From the NCBI RefSeq assembly GCF_055900595.2, contig NZ_CM148325.1: a DNA stretch of 64,000 bases; one strand, 5' to 3'. Below the pieces are notes generated by a model, which was not told the DNA's origin, ran no database searches, and worked only from the letters and a program-made list of their open reading frames with translations. Both the position numbers and the translations under genes were made by a program. Shown here piece by piece: positions 45,452 through 54,092 of this stretch (position 1 is its first letter; each line of letters starts with the position of its first letter).

Positions 45452-47896
45452 TTACACCTTTTCAACCTGAACAAGGTTTGTATGTGACGGATTCCCCTTA
45501 GCGAGAGGAGACGGACGTTGAGTGGTCAGTACGTTGATACAACCGCCCTTATCGACACGTTTTGCATCCGGGTCATACCAGGCACCTTCACCCAGTGCGA
45601 CCACACCCGGCATCATTCGTGGCGTCACTTTCGCCTCAATATGAACCTCACCACGATCGTTAAAGATCCTGACTTTATCGCCGTTGTTGATACCGCGTTT
45701 TTGCGCATCAAGCGGGTTGATCCACATTTCCTGACGGCAAGCCGCTTTCAGCACATCAACGTTGCCGTAAGTTGAGTGAACGCGAGATTTATAGTGGAAA
45801 CCCGTAAGCTGCAGCGGATATTGTTTGTTCAGCGGATCCTGATAACTTTCAAAGCCCGGCGTGTAGATCGGCAGTGGATCGATCACATCGCCTTCTGGCA
45901 ATTCCCAGGTAGCGGCAATGTCAGCAAGCGCCTGCGAATAAATCTCAATTTTACCCGATGGCGTGGTCAGTGGATTTGCCTGCGGATCTTCACGGAAGGC
46001 TTTATAAGCAACGTGATGCCCTTGTGGGTCGCGCTTTTTAAAGATCCCCTGCTTGCGGAACTCTTCAAACGTTGGCAGTTCAGGAATCGCTTCCCGCGAC
46101 TGGGCATACAGATGCCGCATCCACTCTTCCTGTGTACGGCCTTCAGTAAACTGTTGCTCAACGCCAAGACGTTTTGCCAGTTCGCTGGTCATTTCATAGA
46201 TGGTCTTACATTCAAAGCGCGGTTTAATCACCTGATCGTTGAAAATCACGTAAGACATATTCCCGCAGGATGCATCCAGTGCAAAGTCCATCTGTTCGGA
46301 AGCGGTGCAGTCAGGCAGCAGGATGTCAGCATATTTCGCCGATGAAGTCATGTGGCAGTCGATAACCACAATCAGCTCGCACTTCTTATCATCCTGAAGG
46401 ATTTCATGGGTACGGTTGATTTCAGAATGCTGGTTAATCAGGCAGTTACCGGCATAGTTCCAGATCATTTTGATCGGCACATCCAGCTTATCTTTCCCGC
46501 GCACACCATCACGCAGCGCTGTCATTTCCGGGCCTCGTTCAATGGCATCGGTCCACATAAACATCGAAATGCTGGTCTGGATCGGGTTTTCGAGGGTCGG
46601 CATACGGACAAAAGGTAAGCTGTATGAACCTTCACGCGCGCCGCTGTTGCCCCCGTTAATACCAACGTTACCGGTCAGAATCGCCAGCATCGAGATAGCA
46701 CGGGTTGCGATTTCACCGTTAGCGTGACGCTGCGGGCCCCATCCCTGGCTGATAAACGCCGGTTTGGTACTACCGATTTCACGAGCCAATTTGATGATTT
46801 TGTCTGCCGGAACACCGGTGATTTGCGAGGCCCATTCCGGCGTTTTAGCCACGCCATCTGGCCCTTCACCCAGAATATAAGCTTTATAGTGACCATTTTT
46901 CGGCGCACTGGCTGGCAGTGTTTTCTCGTCGTAGCCAACGCAATATTTATCGAGGAATGCCTGATCCACCAGGTTTTCGGTGATCATGACATACGCCAGA
47001 CCGTTAACCAGTGCGGCATCTGTTCCCGGACGAATAGGGATCCACTCATCTTCGCGCCCGGCACCGGTGTCAGTATAGCGCGGATCGATGATGATCATGC
47101 GAGCATTAGATTTCTGGCGCGCCTGTTCAAGATAGTAAGTCACCCCACCGCCACTCATTCGCGTTTCGCCAGGGTTATTACCAAACAGCACTACCAGTTT
47201 ACTGTTTTCGATATCCGACGGGCTGTTACCATCTGCCCAGCCGCCGTAGGTATAGTTCAAACCTTCCGCAATTTGCGCGGAAGAGTAGTCACCGTAATGG
47301 TTCAGATAACCGCCGCAGCAGTTCATCAGGCGAGCGACCAGGGTATTTCCCGGCGGCCAGGAGCGGGTCATGGTGCCGCCCAGCGTACCGGTACCATAGT
47401 TCAGATAGATAGACTCGTTGCCGTACTCTTTGATCAGGCGCTGCATATTGGTCGCGATGATGTCGTAGGCTTCTTCCCAGCTAATGCGCTCGAATTTGCC
47501 TTCACCGCGCGCCCCGACTCGTTTCATCGGATATTTCAGGCGGTCCGGATTGTAGACACGGCGACGCATGGAACGCCCACGCAGACAGGCGCGCACCTGG
47601 TGCAGGCCGTCATAGTTGTCATCGCCGGTATTATCCGTTTCAACATATTTAATTTCACCGTCCACAACGTGCATACGTAGCGGGCAGCGGCTACCACAGT
47701 TAACTGTACAGGCGCTCCAGATTACCTTTTCGTCTGACTTTGCCGGAAGGGCACTATCAACAGCGTGCGCAATCCGACTAAAAGGTAATGTTAATGCGCT
47801 GCTGGCCATTGCCAGGCCGCCGATCGCTGTCGTTTTTACCAAACCACGGCGACTCACCTCAGCAGCCAATACCGCATCAGGGATTTTCGTTTTCAT
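45452..47896 (-). CDS. dmsA: DMSO reductase catalytic subunit (molybdopterin; Tat leader)
   Basis: 814-aa ORF MKTKIPDAVLAAEVSRRGLVKTTAIGGLAMASSALTLPF.. with twin-arginine leader; matches DmsA. Confidence 0.97.
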   Translation of the reverse strand: MKTKIPDAVLAAEVSRRGLVKTTAIGGLAMASSALTLPFSRIAHAVDSALPAKSDEKVIWSACTVNCGSRCPLRMHVVDGEIKYVETDNTGDDNYDGLHQVRACLRGRSMRRRVYNPDRLKYPMKRVGARGEGKFERISWEEAYDIIATNMQRLIKEYGNESIYLNYGTGTLGGTMTRSWPPGNTLVARLMNCCGGYLNHYGDYSSAQIAEGLNYTYGGWADGNSPSDIENSKLVVLFGNNPGETRMSGGGVTYYLEQARQKSNARMIIIDPRYTDTGAGREDEWIPIRPGTDAALVNGLAYVMITENLVDQAFLDKYCVGYDEKTLPASAPKNGHYKAYILGEGPDGVAKTPEWASQITGVPADKIIKLAREIGSTKPAFISQGWGPQRHANGEIATRAISMLAILTGNVGINGGNSGAREGSYSLPFVRMPTLENPIQTSISMFMWTDAIERGPEMTALRDGVRGKDKLDVPIKMIWNYAGNCLINQHSEINRTHEILQDDKKCELIVVIDCHMTSSAKYADILLPDCTASEQMDFALDASCGNMSYVIFNDQVIKPRFECKTIYEMTSELAKRLGVEQQFTEGRTQEEWMRHLYAQSREAIPELPTFEEFRKQGIFKKRDPQGHHVAYKAFREDPQANPLTTPSGKIEIYSQALADIAATWELPEGDVIDPLPIYTPGFESYQDPLNKQYPLQLTGFHYKSRVHSTYGNVDVLKAACRQEMWINPLDAQKRGINNGDKVRIFNDRGEVHIEAKVTPRMMPGVVALGEGAWYDPDAKRVDKGGCINVLTTQRPSPLAKGNPSHTNLVQVEKV

Positions 47897-48066
47897 AATG
47901 GCTCACTCAAGCTTGCTCACGATTGATTCCAGTAACAAACCGTATTGTGTAATTATTTCTATAGCAGGTCGCTATATAGGCTTGTATATATCGAATAATT
48001 TGAAAATCAAAGAGATATGTAGATTTTCACTCGAAAGTAGTATTACGTGTAAGTGAGGAGTAATTA

Positions 48067-48080
48067 TTGTTCGGTATCAA
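48067..48080 (-). promoter_or_regulatory. FNR box of the dmsA promoter
   Basis: Minus-strand TTGATACCGAACAA (TTGAT-N4-ATCAA-like) about 170 bp upstream of the dmsA start. Confidence 0.55.
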
Positions 48081-48192
48081 AGGGAGACAAAAAAAGCGCC
48101 CGCAGGAGATTTAACGGTACTTACTCCTCTTGCTGATTTCCTTATTTTTCAATAAGTAAACAAAAACAAGGGGAGCAAATTATCACAAATAA

Positions 48193-49197
48193 TTACTGGT
48201 CGATGGACAGTTTATGGACACTTTCAGCCAGCGGATTAAAGCTGATCGCATCCTGTAAAAAGTCCGGTGAAAAATGCGCATACGTCATCGTTTGCTGAAT
48301 CGTGGCGTGACCCAGGATCCTCTGCAACGTGACGATGTTCCCGCCGTTCATCATGAAATGCGTGGCGAACGTGTGCCGCATGACATGCGTGGCCTGCCCT
48401 TTGGGTAAGTCGGGCTTCACCTCCTGAAGGATCTCCCTGAAACTGAGATAATCAACCTGATATAACAGGCCGGTCCGGCGGGTTTTAATTAACGGCACAA
48501 CGGAATCAGCTACAGGAACCGAGCGCGATTTCCCGTTCTTTGTGTTAAAGAACGTCACCCTGTTACCCACGATGTGTTCCCCGCGAAGCGTTGACGCCTC
48601 TTTCCATCTGGCCCCGGTCGAAAGGCACAGAATGGCAATGCGTCGTGCATCACCCTCAAGCCGTTTCAGAAGGCGATCAATCTCGTCATCTGAAAGAAAG
48701 GCCATTTCTGTATTCTGAACCTTGAGTTTACGTATTCCGCGCACAGGGTTTTCGTTATGATAAACCTCCGCGTCAATTAACAACGAAAACATCGCAGATA
48801 AGGCGCACAGGTCGCGATTGATACTGGACGGCATCAGTCCCGCCTGCAACTTATCCGAGCGATACTCAATCACGAATTTTCGTGTCATCTGGCTGGCGCG
48901 CGGGTCCCCCATTTCACGTATCACCTTCTCCAGTCTGGTTCTGTAGGTATCACCATATGCCTGATTACGACCATCAAGCATCCACCACACCTCAATCAGT
49001 TCTGATAACCGCCGTTGATCGGCGGGCCTTGCCTGCCACGGGTTATTGTGGAAATTCTGAAGAACGTATCTTTCGAATTCCTGCGCCTTTGATTTCAGGG
49101 TGAAAATCTTACGAATCCGCCTTCCTCCCGCCCCCTGAGGCCTTACATCAACCTGATAACGTCCGTCTTTGAGTTGCTTAATCGACATGATCAGCAC
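48193..49197 (-). CDS. int: P2-family tyrosine integrase
   Basis: 334-aa ORF; KQLKDGRYQVDVRP.., AILCLSTGARW.. and ATHVMRHTFATHFMMNGGNIVTLQRILGHATIQQTMTYAHF resemble P2 Int as I remember it. Confidence 0.92.
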   Translation of the reverse strand: MLIMSIKQLKDGRYQVDVRPQGAGGRRIRKIFTLKSKAQEFERYVLQNFHNNPWQARPADQRRLSELIEVWWMLDGRNQAYGDTYRTRLEKVIREMGDPRASQMTRKFVIEYRSDKLQAGLMPSSINRDLCALSAMFSLLIDAEVYHNENPVRGIRKLKVQNTEMAFLSDDEIDRLLKRLEGDARRIAILCLSTGARWKEASTLRGEHIVGNRVTFFNTKNGKSRSVPVADSVVPLIKTRRTGLLYQVDYLSFREILQEVKPDLPKGQATHVMRHTFATHFMMNGGNIVTLQRILGHATIQQTMTYAHFSPDFLQDAISFNPLAESVHKLSIDQ

Positions 49198-49257: not shown

Positions 49258-49599
49258 TCAGCCAGCATTGCGGCCTGATTGGGGTGATTTTTGGGTATTG
49301 CGGGTTGAAACCTGATCGTCCTCCGACTGCGTGGAGCCATCAAGAGAGAGAGCCGGGGCGATCTGACCGGCAACAGGTAGCGTCTTATCTTTGATTAGCC
49401 AGAACATATATTTTTCAAACCGATCCACTTGAAGGACGGCCTCAACAATCTTTGCTCTGGCGATCTTTTGCCCTGACTCATAATTCCTGACAGTTGCCAG
49501 AGATAACCCTGTAATATCAGCAAATTGCTTTTGAGTTAGCCCTTCCGTCTTGCGTATCAAACGCAACTTTTTCGCATAGTCTATTGACAAGATACTCAT
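49258..49599 (-). CDS. CI/C-type immunity repressor (HTH)
   Basis: 113-aa ORF; HTH LTQKQFADITGLSLATVRNYESG and C-terminal ..QIAPAL.. resemble the P2 C repressor; divergent from cox; SD AGGAG upstream. Confidence 0.8.
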   Translation of the reverse strand: MSILSIDYAKKLRLIRKTEGLTQKQFADITGLSLATVRNYESGQKIARAKIVEAVLQVDRFEKYMFWLIKDKTLPVAGQIAPALSLDGSTQSEDDQVSTRNTQKSPQSGRNAG

Positions 49600-49702
49600 T
49601 TGGGGATTAATCTCCTACAAAAGATAACCGTACGATTATCTTTACAAGTCATCAAAAATCATCAAAAGGCGCAACAAGCGCACCAATGCAAGAGGATAAC
49701 AA
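49600..49702. promoter_or_regulatory. repressor/cox divergent promoter-operator region
   Basis: Contains an 18-bp near-palindrome GATAACCGTACGATTATC (about 49623-49640) and tandem TCATCAAAA direct repeats (about 49649-49667) between divergent regulatory genes. Confidence 0.5.
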
Positions 49703-50224
49703 ATGCGGGAGATTATTGCCGACAAAGAGTTATCTGGCGCTCAACCGGTTCAGGATGATGGCGCGGACAATGAATTCATTGAAGCTGCCAACGACAACGA
49801 ACACCTGGAAACCAAAACCAGACCGTCCTACAAAAAGGGCGCAACCCTACGACTGGACGGCCCAGTCGCAGGACTTGTGTCACTGGAAAAAGGGGCTGCC
49901 TATCTGGGGGTAACAAAATCTGCGCTACGCGCCGCCATTCAGCGCGGGCAGATGCCGGGTCACAAAACGCGCTCAAATCCCGAAGATGAAAAGTCAGACG
50001 GTACATGGTGGTTTAACGCCAAAGCCTGGGACGAACTAGCCGACGAACTACTGGAGTGCGAACCGCCAGAGTGGCACAACTGGAAAAGCTACTGGACGTA
50101 CGACCGCAAGAAAAGAAAGTTTTCACCGGCAAACAAGGAGGACTGCCAGACCGTTAAAGGTAAGCAGGTTTACTCCCCCAGAGTTTCAAAACTGGAGCAA
50201 CTCAAAAACAACCAGCCCGGCTAA
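49703..50224 (+). CDS. Cox/excisionase-like DNA-binding protein (long form, 173 aa)
   Basis: ATG with SD AAGAGGA; central HTH-like segment AAYLGVTKSALRAAIQRGQMPG followed by W-rich segment resembling the Cox fold; the N-terminal 55 aa are extra relative to about 90-aa Cox proteins, so the true start may be internal. Confidence 0.55.
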   Translation: MREIIADKELSGAQPVQDDGADNEFIEAANDNEHLETKTRPSYKKGATLRLDGPVAGLVSLEKGAAYLGVTKSALRAAIQRGQMPGHKTRSNPEDEKSDGTWWFNAKAWDELADELLECEPPEWHNWKSYWTYDRKKRKFSPANKEDCQTVKGKQVYSPRVSKLEQLKNNQPG

Positions 50225-52275: not shown

Positions 52276-52758
52276 TTATCGGGAAAAACCGATCGTAATG
52301 GCAGCCATCATCTTTTCAGCGAAAGAGAGAGATTCACGATGACTGATATTCAGAGACATACAGGCTTTGTTGTACGCCACATTTTCCATGCATTCCAGGA
52401 CAGGAGAGTCATGCATCTCAAGCTCTGGAAGGCGTGCCAGCAGAGCTTCCGTACTGAGGAGGGCGCTTTTGGTAATCAACTCATTGTAGCGATGGGCATG
52501 CTCACTCGCCGCCTGCGCACGTTGCCCGAAACGACATATGAAATTACAGGCTCCGAGAACCACCACCACTGCCCCAAGCACCCAGCCGAAATGCCAGCCG
52601 GCTACGATGAACGCACCCGCCGCAAGGATCAAAATGTTGATGATCGCATCAAGGCGACGATTGAATACCGCCGCGATGCGCTCCAGCCAGTAGCTGTACC
52701 AGAGACGGAACATGACCTCATCCCGTTCTCTCGATTTTTTACGTTGGTTGTTTTGCAT
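52276..52758 (-). CDS. reverse-oriented two-TM membrane protein (160 aa), candidate moron
   Basis: Minus-strand ORF with paired hydrophobic helices (AIINILILAAGAFIVAGW / FGWVLGAVVVVLGACNFICRF) flanked by basic residues, SD GAGGG upstream; the overlapping plus-strand ORF 52258..52893 is His/Arg-rich and looks non-coding. Confidence 0.45.
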   Translation of the reverse strand: MQNNQRKKSRERDEVMFRLWYSYWLERIAAVFNRRLDAIINILILAAGAFIVAGWHFGWVLGAVVVVLGACNFICRFGQRAQAASEHAHRYNELITKSALLSTEALLARLPELEMHDSPVLECMENVAYNKACMSLNISHRESLSFAEKMMAAITIGFSR

Positions 52759-52992
52759 GGTGTTTTATCCCTCATCGTCATCGCTCTGCCCCTAATCAGC
52801 GCAGAGTGCAGGGTAACCTGGCTCGTGGAATTTTTGCAGCCAGACATCTTTACCCCCGGGCGTGTTGAACAAAGTGTCCGCCAGATCCACTGAACGGCGG
52901 ATTCATCAATGCTAACACGCCCTTCTTTTCCGGTTGAAGGCGAAAAAACCGGACCATTACCCCGACACAAAACAGAACAACGGAGAACAACT

Positions 52993-53547
52993 ATGCCCGC
53001 ACTTAAACCTATGGGTGTATCAGGTGTACCACCGAAGCATGTCAGAGCCTGGACACAACAGGAAGATGCTCTACTGGTCGGTTTATACCCCTCCCACACC
53101 GTACCAGAACTGACAAAACACTTTCAGAGAACCGGGCCAGCAATACGAAGCCGCATCCGTCTTTTGCTCTCTCAGGGGGTTATCCACACCAAACAACCCC
53201 CCCTGAATACAAAAGAACTCAACACGCTCATCAGGAATCGCCACACAAAAACCATCCGGGAACTCGCGAATGAACTGGGGCGCTCGACATCCACGGTGGG
53301 ACTGAACCTGAGAAAAAGAGGGTACCGGTTCAGGAAATACGGGGAACTCCACCACAGAGCCAGATACAGCGATCACCTGGTGGAGTTGGTAACTGAACTG
53401 CGCGATGAACAGGGGATGACATTCAGCGAAATCAGAAAGTACATCCGGGACACGGCCGGGATATCCCTTAAAAGATGGGTCCTCGCCCGGCTTTACGCAC
53501 GATATACCGCCGCTGACACCGTGCTTTGCGAACTGCTACCGGACTGA
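52993..53547 (+). CDS. putative DNA-binding protein with repeated HTH-like segments (184 aa)
   Basis: Internal ATG of track ORF 52909..53547 with SD ACGGAG; segments ..TIRELANELGRSTSTVGLNLRKRG.. and ..MTFSEIRKYIRDTAGISLKRW.. look HTH-like. Confidence 0.5.
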   Translation: MPALKPMGVSGVPPKHVRAWTQQEDALLVGLYPSHTVPELTKHFQRTGPAIRSRIRLLLSQGVIHTKQPPLNTKELNTLIRNRHTKTIRELANELGRSTSTVGLNLRKRGYRFRKYGELHHRARYSDHLVELVTELRDEQGMTFSEIRKYIRDTAGISLKRWVLARLYARYTAADTVLCELLPD

Positions 53548-53637
53548 GTAACCACTATGCACACACAAAAAAACCGCTTGCCATGCCGCAATCAGTCAGG
53601 TTACATTTCCGCTGCACCTCATAAAACGGGTGCCGGG

Positions 53638-53854
53638 ATTGCAACCCCCGCTGACAACTACAGCGCACAACCGCGCCAGCGGTTTTTTTGTGCGTACCGT
53701 ATCGCCACGTCTTTTTCGCGCCAGAATTATGGCGGGGCGTATGGGGCCGACTTCGGTCGGGCCGGTTTCTGTAGTTGCCGGTGGTTGCAACCCTGTACGT
53801 CTCGCCACCCAGAATTGCAACCTCTGGATGGTGAGTTTTCAAAACTTGCAACTA
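53638..53854. repeat. cluster of four (A/G/C)TTGCAAC(C/T) repeats with a UUCG-loop hairpin
   Basis: ATTGCAACC (about 53638), GTTGCAACC (about 53784), ATTGCAACC (about 53814), CTTGCAACT (about 53845); hairpin GGCCGAC-TTCG-GTCGGGCC at about 53745-53763. Confidence 0.5.
53669..53689 (+). terminator. rho-independent terminator
   Basis: CCGCGCC-A-GCGG stem followed by a T7 run, downstream of the 52993..53547 gene. Confidence 0.55.
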
Positions 53855-53867
53855 CAGAGGCCACACC

Positions 53868-54092
53868 ATGGCAAACCGCAAACAACAGCGCGCATACGCT
53901 GCGCGTCGTCACATCCAGACTGAAATCAACCGCAGACTTTTCCGCGCATTCCGCGTCGCGCATATCATGCACATCAATATGCTGCATGAGCGCAGCCACG
54001 CACTGTCAAACATGTATTCCGCCGCTGTATTCAGCTACCTGGCGGATGACCTGCGCGAGCTGCAGGACCTCATTAACCAGCACCACCACTAA
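53868..54092 (+). CDS. hypothetical small protein (74 aa)
   Basis: ORF MANRKQQRAYAARRHIQTEINRRLFRAF.. with SD AGAGG 7 nt upstream, directly after the TTGCAAC repeats. Confidence 0.4.
   Translation: MANRKQQRAYAARRHIQTEINRRLFRAFRVAHIMHINMLHERSHALSNMYSAAVFSYLADDLRELQDLINQHHH

Follow-up and report, generated by a model that had tools for sequence, protein, structure and literature searches.

A candidate palindromic operator unit and a double-length Cox protein in the immunity region of a P2-like prophage

The 64,000-nt stretch of contig NZ_CM148325.1 (assembly GCF_055900595.2) analyzed here, which we call the window and number from its first letter, carries beside dmsA the immunity region, or lysis-lysogeny switch, of a P2-like (Peduoviridae) prophage, a relative of PhiECO5. 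At the center of this region, a 103-bp spacer (49600-49702) separates two divergent open reading frames (ORFs), one encoding a repressor of the P2 C family and the other a Cox-like protein of 173 aa. We consider it probable, at roughly 70%, that the locus forms a bistable switch of the P2/Wphi type, in which C would act on two operators and Cox on a series of phased boxes, with Cox made as the full-length 173-aa protein. The homology, gene anatomy, conservation, covariation and statistics described here are observed, and from them we infer the binding events, both promoters and the roles of the Cox extensions. This is a known type of switch in an informative variant rather than a new kind of system, and it varies in two features: its operator unit is palindromic in a family known for asymmetric direct repeats, and its Cox is conserved at double length.

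Three genes make up the locus. A P2-type tyrosine integrase gene (int; 48193-49197, - strand; Pfam Int_N 2.2e-30 and Phage_integrase 1.3e-17) is transcribed together with the repressor gene C (49258-49599, - strand; 113 aa; identified with phmmer against the PDB; Pfam HTH_3 4.3e-9; PHROG 147), and cox (49703-50224, + strand; Pfam Phage_Cox, PF10743) runs in the opposite direction. C comes first in the leftward operon, is followed by int and diverges from cox, and the order int (-), C (-), cox (+) is likewise that of P2 and Wphi. The host gene dmsA lies beside the prophage at 45452-47896 (- strand). The 1.1 kb around the switch is present in 100% identical copies in E. coli chromosomes and at an identity of at least 99% in 26 genomes. 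In the identical E. coli copies, the Prokaryotic Genome Annotation Pipeline (PGAP) names the three products 'phage integrase', 'helix-turn-helix domain-containing protein' and 'Cox family DNA-binding protein', the last with 173 aa (WP_001206784.1). Copies of ~80% identity are found in records classed as Peduoviridae, and in UTI89 the matching int-C-cox layout belongs to a P2-like prophage that is complete and sits between serS and dmsA. In Nilsson et al. 2011, this prophage is PhiECO5, tentatively placed in 'immunity class IX' (PMC3448106). It is because the 80% relatives are annotated as Peduoviridae, and because the UTI89 layout is that of PhiECO5, that we identify the locus as an immunity region.

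For comparison, we assembled nine loci, comprising the window and eight further int-C-cox loci from E. coli, Yersinia, Salmonella (five types) and Serratia, which were gathered by exact-protein look-up and from annotated phage matches. A scan of genome contigs returned one locus only, in E. albertii. The vB_EcoM-569R5 and 705R2 records stem from a study of phages located within clinical E. coli isolate genomes (bioRxiv 10.1101/2022.06.29.498070). Because they come from isolate genomes, we do not take 569R5 and 705R2 as evidence of viable phages.

The repressor matches P2 C over its full length (phmmer against PDB entries 2l49 and 2xcj, 'C protein', E 3.7e-15; residues 8-92 on 5-89), and the alignment includes the GQIAPAL tail of P2 C. 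A prior sequence-only reading had proposed an immunity switch in the 103-bp region between divergent repressor and cox-like genes. It was right, and the switch is of the P2 type. No 186 CI chain was found among the PDB matches of the repressor at E<=0.01. With 113 aa, the protein is not of the two-domain, ~190-aa type of 186 CI, and the sole aspect shared with that system is the inverted repeat. A close comparison is provided by the 569R5 repressor, which is 88% identical to C of the window and has a recognition helix that differs from it by one conservative residue (V to I).

The best operator candidate is a palindrome that we call O2 (49620-49643; 24 bp, AAAGATAACCGTACGATTATCTTT), in which 11 of 12 pairs are symmetric around the core ATAACC-GTAC-GATTAT (49624-49639). 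The sequence-only reading had taken its inner 18 bp (GATAACCGTACGATTATC, 49623-49640) for a near-palindromic operator with two mismatches. Those two letters turn out to be a single mismatched pair, C49628/A49635, and the symmetry runs on to 24 bp. A palindrome this good arose in 4 of 2000 dinucleotide shuffles of the spacer. At the same place in the spacer (positions 21-45, just downstream of the -10 hexamer of the candidate early promoter Pe described below), palindromes recur in 569R5 and Yersinia (0/2000 shuffles each) and in Serratia (9/2000). Among the loci, the O2 half-sites differ according to the recognition helix of the repressor. Between the window and 569R5, the half-sites are kept while the 4-bp center changes (GTAC vs TTTT). 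Conserved half-sites around a varying center, read by near-identical helices, are the behavior expected of a site bound by a symmetric dimer. The unit can be written as AT(A/C)(A/C)(C/T)C-N4-inverted. Its dyad symmetry means that each subunit of a dimer could contact the DNA specifically, at any rate at O2. For the P2 C family, non-palindromic half-sites have been stressed (PMC2995052), and O2 is palindromic in the window, 569R5, Yersinia and Serratia. As the symmetry belongs to the DNA site rather than to the protein family, we regard the palindromic unit as marking a variant and not as excluding the P2 C type.

A second copy of the unit lies upstream. In every locus, the best direct repeat of the switch region has a spacing of 32-33 bp and pairs O2 with a site that we call O1. 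In the window allele, O1 is degenerate (49588-49611; core ATACTC-ATTT-GGGGAT at 49592-49607), and it is positioned between the Pe -35 and -10 hexamers, over the C start codon. The repeated stretch reads AAGATAACC in 569R5 (9/9 matching positions), TGTCGAATT in Serratia (9/9) and TAAGGGGAT(T) in Salmonella (9-10/10); in Yersinia, 8 of 9 positions match. Over the 24 bp, O1 and O2 agree at 12-18 positions (14-18 in eight loci, 12 in the window), and in eight of the nine loci none of the other ~1950 sequence windows within ±1 kb matches O2 as well as O1 does. Moreover, the left half of O2 covaries with codons 2-4 of C (MVIL, MVNM, MNST and others), a pattern that is difficult to account for without a functional O1. 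As controls, the same direct-repeat script, run on P2 and Wphi, picked out their published operators (GTTTAGAT at 22 bp and TATTGGTGAC at 34 bp, respectively). The window O1 is also 19/24 identical to the Salmonella-type O1 (L008, L012 and L013; right half GGGGAT), and the window O2 belongs to the E. coli 569R5 type, a combination suggesting that the window allele is a recombinant or an intermediate of two immunity types whose recognition helices are one or two residues apart. An earlier suggestion that the region has features of both repeat types thus stands in part: the operator does combine dyad symmetry with direct repetition, but the direct repeat of the repressor would be the O1 copy 32-33 bp upstream and not the tandem TCATCAAAA to which we return below.

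The position of the two operators gains meaning from the promoter that they would control. Our candidate for Pe (49584-49613, + strand) consists of a -35 hexamer TTGACA (49584-89, within C codons 4-6), an 18-nt spacer and a -10 hexamer TAATCT (49608-13), with a predicted start near 49620. A consensus promoter scan using a 9-of-12 rule found no promoter in 49400-49900, because this rule fails on a Pe with an 18-nt spacer, and we used a position weight matrix (PWM) scan instead. With it, TTGAC(A/G)-18-TA(T/A)NCT was the top + strand match at the identical position in all nine loci (scores 11-14.8). The PWM scan also recovered the annotated Pe of P2. There, too, the -35 hexamer overlaps the C start codon, and the -10 hexamer lies at an almost equal distance from the cox ATG (93 nt against 90 nt).

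For the lysogenic promoter Pc, we have a low-confidence candidate at 49658-49686 (- strand; -35 TTGGTG at 49681-86, -10 GATGAT at 49658-63, 17-nt spacer). Its distance to the cox ATG is the same as that of the annotated P2 Pc, and it recurs in 569R5, Sal182 and Sal190, with weak scores. Its -10 hexamer falls inside the second tandem unit, and the array of boxes described next would cover it. Another candidate came from the ribosome-binding sites. Both divergent genes have Shine-Dalgarno (SD) sequences of the AGGATA type (49608-49613 and 49693-49698 in the window, with equivalent sites in L001 and L007-L014), the reverse complement of which, TATCCT (TAATCT on the C side of the window), resembles a -10 hexamer for the opposing strand. 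On the cox side, every locus has a partner for TATCCT in cox codons 5-7, namely TCGGCA at a spacing of 18 nt (score 6.9), a mirror image of Pe and an alternative candidate for Pc. A third candidate, TTGATG-17-TACGGT, is specific to the window.

Between O2 and cox, the spacer is built from units of one helical turn. Dividing the spacers into 10-nt blocks counted from the cox ATG yields, in every relative, four in-register units ending in ACAA(A/G), followed by CCAA(C/T)G. In the window, the corresponding candidate Cox-box array consists of five 10-bp units (49639-49688, + strand): TCTTTACAAG, TCATCAAAAA, TCATCAAAAG, GCGCAACAAG and CGCACCAATG. In-phase ACAAR counts as high as those observed occurred in 0 of 2000 shuffles in four loci, in 1 in Serratia and in 4 in Yersinia, and base autocorrelation peaks at a lag of 10 in all loci. 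The two tandem repeats noted earlier are indeed present, as TCATCAAAA-A-TCATCAAAA (49649-49667, + strand; copies at 49649-49657 and 49659-49667, with a period of 10 bp), and coincide with units 2 and 3. Of 5000 spacer shuffles, 41 contained an exact 9-nt run at a lag of 4-15, and at a lag of 9-11 such runs occur at only two places in the window. The window carries TCATCAAAAA and TCATCAAAAG where its relatives have CCAAAACAAA and CCATCACAAG (569R5) or TTAAAACAAA and TCATCACAAG. From this alignment, the exact tandem is a lineage-specific homogenization of the neighboring units 2 and 3. Within the array, we also noticed a terminator-like inverted repeat, GGCGCAACAAGCGCACC (49668-49684), with a T-run on the - strand. 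Its stem is intact in 569R5 and broken in Yersinia and Salmonella, and it is probably a by-product of units 4 and 5.

The same motif recurs in the attachment region. Three phased (A/G)CAA(A/G) boxes (48161-48189, + strand; ACAAG at 48166-70, GCAAA at 48175-79 and ACAAA at 48185-89) lie immediately to the left of two direct repeats of the Int arm type that mark the P' arm (ATGGACA at 48203-09 and 48214-20, within 48203-48220, + strand). These repeats are conserved in all relatives and match the P2-type Int arm consensus tgTGGaCa (PMC3448106). The box trio is found at exact 10-bp spacing next to the arm repeats in six loci, namely in the window, 569R5, Yersinia, two Salmonella types and Serratia, and its position matches that of the annotated Cox site in P2 attP. 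The boxes bound by P2 Cox are 10-11 bp apart, number at least six, overlap Pc and are also present in attP (PMC3936717), and Apl of phage 186 behaves similarly at its sites (PMC7498355). The 10-bp array is kept across loci with different repressors, as is the helix-turn-helix (HTH) of Cox; the palindrome is not. Its conservation across immunity types, together with the recurrence of the motif beside the Int arm, argues for Cox boxes rather than C sites. On sequence evidence, then, short boxes one turn apart lie both over the candidate Pc and in the attachment region, and the array at 49639-49688, tandem included, and the trio at 48161-48189 are probably Cox boxes.

The protein that would bind these boxes is twice as long as expected. 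A match to the Pfam Cox domain (PF10743; 34.8 bits against a cut-off of 27.5 bits) aligns residues 56-129 with positions 9-86 of the 87 in the profile, and HTH_17 matches residues 60-88. This places the DNA-binding domain in the middle of the protein, with ~47 additional residues on its N-terminal side and ~43-45 on its C-terminal side, in keeping with the earlier description of a 173-aa ORF with a central HTH and about twice the usual size. Known Cox proteins are small, single-domain proteins of 80-95 aa; here, the length is 173 aa, and 173-192 aa in the subfamily, with conserved extensions at both ends. The sequence-only reading had called this length unusual, a view that the databases do not share: PGAP annotates the protein, PHROG 23196 is a family of its own that matches it end to end, and a larger Cox 'group 2' was noted before (PMC3448106). 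From its length, we would place the PhiECO5 Cox in this group. A family search collected 59 proteins from Escherichia, Shigella, Yersinia, Salmonella and Serratia, consisting of full-length members of 173-192 aa and of shorter or truncated gene calls. Among 1.8 billion cluster representatives, only 23 clusters match the long Cox, indicating that the long form is a narrow lineage. A profile search against PDB sequences gave no match at E<=1, and NCBIfam contains no specific model for the long Cox, giving sub-threshold excisionase and MAD1 HTH matches only. It is fold comparison alone that links the protein to the P2 Cox structure (4lhf), with which it shares a winged-HTH fold.

Several observations bear on where Cox begins. 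An SD sequence, GAGGA (49692-49696, + strand), ends 6 nt before ATG 49703. Its context is AAGAGGATAACAA-ATG in seven of the nine loci (with A for C in Sal186) and CAGGAGGATAACAAA-ATG in the two SalB-type Salmonella loci, and all nine share the core GAGGATAACAA. Two codons upstream of this ATG there is an in-frame TAA. The protein starts with the motif M-x-x-x-I-A-D-K-E-L-S-D, of which IADKELSD is kept in relatives down to 51% identity; Met1, I5, A6 and L10 are invariant in an alignment of 20 sequences, and among 52 sequences Met1 is invariant and I5, A6 and L10 are conserved in at least 90%. After the motif come an acidic linker that varies in length, the HTH core and an extension that is itself well conserved, PPEWHNWKSYWTYDR-KRKF…KEDC…GKRVY…RKSKLEQ. 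Comparison with six relatives gave ratios of nonsynonymous to synonymous substitution rates (dN/dS) of 0.16-0.36 in residues 1-47, 0.06-0.12 in the core and 0.13-0.23 in residues 131-173, with dS at ~1 or more. Other in-frame starts are limited to GTG59, whose SD is poor and whose place is taken by a Cys codon in most relatives, and ATG84, located inside the HTH. The conserved SD, the invariant Met1, the conserved N-terminal motif and a dN/dS of ~0.25 lead us to assign ATG 49703 as the start of Cox. By composition, the protein divides into an acidic tail (residues 1-47, net charge -5), a winged HTH (~55-120; P2 Cox aligns to residues ~55-128) and a basic aromatic extension (121-173, with a net charge of +7 over 131-173). 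Thus, neither of the two explanations offered earlier for the length, an internal start or a fused N-terminal domain, was borne out. Rather, the N-extension is an acidic tail, predicted to be disordered, with a conserved 12-residue motif, and it is matched by a basic extension at the other end. In a low-confidence structural model, the long Cox accordingly has an acidic N-tail that is disordered, a winged helix resembling that of P2 Cox and a C-extension that is basic. Filament formation by P2 Cox is driven by its C-terminal part (PMC3936717). By analogy, the basic C-extension may extend this filament function or add DNA contacts, and the acidic N-tail may modulate it or bind a partner.

Taken together, these elements suggest how the switch would work. 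C, a 113-aa protein with the P2 C fold and presumably a symmetric dimer, would repress Pe by binding O1 and O2, two copies of a 16-24-bp operator with centers 32 bp, or three helical turns, apart. In this arrangement, O1 would lie between the -35 and -10 hexamers of Pe and O2 over its transcription start. Cox, translated from ATG 49703 as a 173-aa protein, would in turn be made from Pe, polymerize on the array at 49639-49688 and occlude the weak Pc, thereby repressing it. At the attachment region, Cox would bind the three boxes at 48161-48189 by the Int arm site and direct excision, for which it would be needed.

Other readings of the two repeat types deserve consideration. A single repressor might bind the palindrome in the manner of 186 CI and the tandem TCATCAAAA in the manner of P2 C. 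Both repeat types are indeed present, each beyond chance, and binding to direct repeats is reported for the P2 C family (PMC2995052). However, 569R5, with its near-identical recognition helix, keeps the half-sites of the palindrome and has CCAAAACAAA CCATCACAAG in place of the tandem. Moreover, no sequence is common to the tandem units and the half-sites of the palindrome, the known C half-sites are separated by 22-34 bp rather than neighboring at 10 bp (PMC1904268), the 10-bp array is conserved where repressors and palindromes differ and recurs at the attachment region, and a 113-aa homologue of P2 C is not a repressor of the 186 CI type. We therefore regard such a dual mode of binding as improbable. 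The palindrome might also not be a protein operator at all and instead act on stability or translation as a hairpin in RNA, be it the 5' end of the early transcript or the C mRNA leader. The - strand RNA folds at -8.4 kcal/mol (z -4.0), where the mismatch of the DNA turns into a G-U pair, the version in 569R5 reaches about -12 kcal/mol on both strands, and compensatory changes between immunity types would fit an RNA stem. Yet the stems are AU-rich and weak, the half-site sequence follows the recognition helix of the repressor, and a hairpin leaves the second copy 32-33 bp upstream, which is partly outside the early transcript, without an explanation. We rank this reading low because the hairpin is absent in the Salmonella relatives: no significant fold was found there (z -1.4 and -0.9), though the site and its upstream direct copy are kept.

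The assignment of the 10-bp array to Cox faces an objection of its own, as phased CAAAA/ACAAA tracts at 10 bp are a classic recipe for static curvature. The A-rich units could thus be curved DNA, a UP-like element, or sites for a host protein or Int, and units 2 and 3 of the window do depart from the ACAA core. With one mismatch allowed, we found no consensus for integration host factor (IHF) in 49560-49760, and the Int arm repeats have a different sequence (ATGGACA). Curvature or another protein would also leave the copy at the attachment site unexplained. There, six loci carry the same motif in the same orientation and in exact 10-bp phase on the stretch from the core side to the P' arm, where the P2 Cox site is annotated, and sharing of a motif between switch and attachment site is the signature of Cox/Apl directionality factors (PMC3936717, PMC7498355). 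These points make the curvature account unlikely. As to the protein, the 173-aa ORF might be over-called, with a real Cox of normal size starting internally. Typical Cox and Apl proteins have 79-95 aa, the first 45 residues have a predicted local distance difference test score (pLDDT) below 50, and shorter gene calls do exist (P0015, 157 aa; P0032, 108 aa). A suitable start is hard to find, however: there is no in-frame ATG before residue 84, within the HTH, and the AGGA before GTG59 is only 3 nt upstream and unconserved. By contrast, a strong SD precedes ATG 49703 in all nine loci with minor flanking differences, Met1 and IADKELSD are conserved down to 51% identity, and the N-extension is under purifying selection (dN/dS ~0.25 at dS ~1) and free of frame-breaking indels. 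An internal start would, in addition, leave the equally conserved C-extension unexplained, and we consider it most improbable.

Some of our observations weigh against the two-operator, Cox-box switch that we favor. In the Salmonella relatives, the O2 dyad is weak (5-8 of 12 pairs), indicating that the palindromic unit is not universal in the clade. The O1 of the window is the weakest of its family, with 12/24 identity to O2 (8/12 in the left half), an offset of 32 bp and a rank of 6-18 of 1953, and it is non-significant alone; the window allele may rely mostly on O2. The Pe -10 hexamer coincides with the reverse complement of the C gene's SD and the -35 hexamer falls in conserved codons, such that part of the conservation of both may stem from the C SD and codons. 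Pc could not be located with confidence, as the three candidates are similarly weak. In the array, window units 2 and 3 have lost the C of the ACAA core and score only 3.9 and 4.3 with the box PWM, compared to 8-12 for canonical boxes. Finally, the AlphaFold2 models of Cox reach a mean pLDDT of only 56-62, and their disordered N-tail and beta-meander C-extension are of low confidence.

The window contains further elements around the switch. On the attachment side, a full-length STnc130 small RNA (Rfam, 127.8 bits; 47987-48121, + strand) lies between dmsA and int, and the prophage junction is at or just past its 3' end. The A-run and GC-rich hairpin that end STnc130 (~48086-48110) are also found to the left of int in relatives integrated at other host sites, from which it follows that the phage may carry a replacement 3' end for this RNA. 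Downstream in the early operon, isrK (60 bits; 53614-53689, + strand) and a C4 antisense RNA (80 bits; 53725-53812, + strand) are adjacent to each other within a 1.1-kb stretch without a PGAP gene (52759-53868). They are followed by a 74-aa ORF (PHROG 3688), a 137-aa ORF (PHROG 3237) and a gpA-like replication endonuclease gene (54580-57090). In phage P1, a c4-type RNA controls an antirepressor. By analogy, the isrK/C4 pair might provide a second immunity or induction layer of the prophage. A 212-aa ORF in the same stretch (52909-53547, + strand) has HTH matches (PHROG 323, 'transcriptional regulator, D5-like', 2.4e-27); PGAP leaves it unannotated in the identical strain-135 sequence. It adjoins a 160-aa ORF of unknown function (52276-52758, - strand; PHROG 6315), which looks like an insert of the moron type within the early region. 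Close to the window's left end, RNA-OUT (97 bits; 796-865, - strand) indicates an element of the IS10/Tn10 type.

The locus is of interest beyond this prophage, as its group is widespread in E. coli, Salmonella, Yersinia and Serratia and, with its heteroimmune relatives, forms a natural series for DNA recognition by the P2 C family. P2 C is a textbook exception, a symmetric dimer said to read non-palindromic direct repeats, and the operators located so far all come from three immunity classes (PMC1904268, PMC2995052). A broader proposal, which is possible although the odds are against it, would have the palindromes bound by conventional symmetric C dimers, two of which cooperate three turns apart, with the clade as a natural intermediate and the half-sites of P2 and Wphi as decayed palindromes. 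In the same proposal, the tails of the long Cox would be a built-in filament control, by auto-inhibition or through a partner such as Int, that the short Cox proteins lack. If true, the clade would explain the long-noted paradox of P2 C, a symmetric dimer reading asymmetric direct repeats. Our analysis further renders the double-length Cox subfamily, with its N-tail and C-extension, experimentally addressable. For annotation, it supports the full-length Cox start and supplies candidate operator and Cox-box motifs for the immunity group.

Among known switches, that of phage 186 shares with the window promoters that face each other, an inverted-repeat operator and, through Apl, a Cox/Apl-type factor on direct repeats one helical turn apart at both switch and attachment site (PMC7498355). 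It differs in its repressor, which has ~190 aa in two domains as opposed to 113 aa with the P2 C fold, and in the gene after cox: the window has no CII-like gene there, and the next ORF has 68 aa and an unknown function. Compared to P2 (PDB 2xcj and 4lhf), the operator spacing is 32 bp rather than 22 bp, O2 is palindromic, the boxes read ACAA(A/G) rather than TTAAA(G/C)NC(A/C), and Cox has in addition a 47-aa acidic N-tail and a ~45-aa basic C-extension. PhiECO5 resembles the window in its integration between serS and dmsA, its gene order and its Cox and C, which have the same lengths of 173 aa and 113 aa, respectively. DNA identity is ~80% for at least the 569R5 and P88-like copies of this type (88% in C and 75% in Cox). 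Unlike this type, the window has an O2 center of GTAC (vs TTTT) with one mismatched pair, a degenerate O1 and a homogenized TCATCAAAA tandem at units 2 and 3. The 2011 paper left the operators and Cox boxes of class IX undefined (PMC3448106), and we found no paper that describes the operators of this class. The closest parallel to the proposed operator arrangement is Wphi (immunity class III), which likewise has a small P2 C-family repressor as the first gene of a leftward C-int operon, a divergent cox gene and a Pe -35 hexamer adjoining or over the C start codon. In Wphi, two operator copies flank the Pe -10 hexamer 34 bp, or three helical turns, apart (PMC1904268, PMC2995052); here, direct copies at 32-33 bp would do the same. 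The studied classes have direct operator copies at 22, 26 or 34 bp, and such a copy is clear in eight of our nine loci, with the window, at 12/24, as the exception. Wphi differs in the length of its Cox (90 aa vs 173 aa) and in its repeated unit, which has 10 bp as opposed to the 16-24 bp found here, where the unit is dyad-symmetric and, at O2 in E. coli, Yersinia and Serratia, nearly perfect. Indeed, the half-sites of P2, P2 Hy dis and Wphi are described as 8-10 bp long and asymmetric, unlike the dyad-symmetric unit of the window. Upon inspection of Wphi (L016), we noticed that its O1 copy of TATTGGTGAC lies within a partial dyad, GTAACC-TATT-GGTGAC (spacer positions 7-22, 6 of 8 pairs); its O2 has no dyad. 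Hidden dyad symmetry may thus extend beyond the long-Cox clade.

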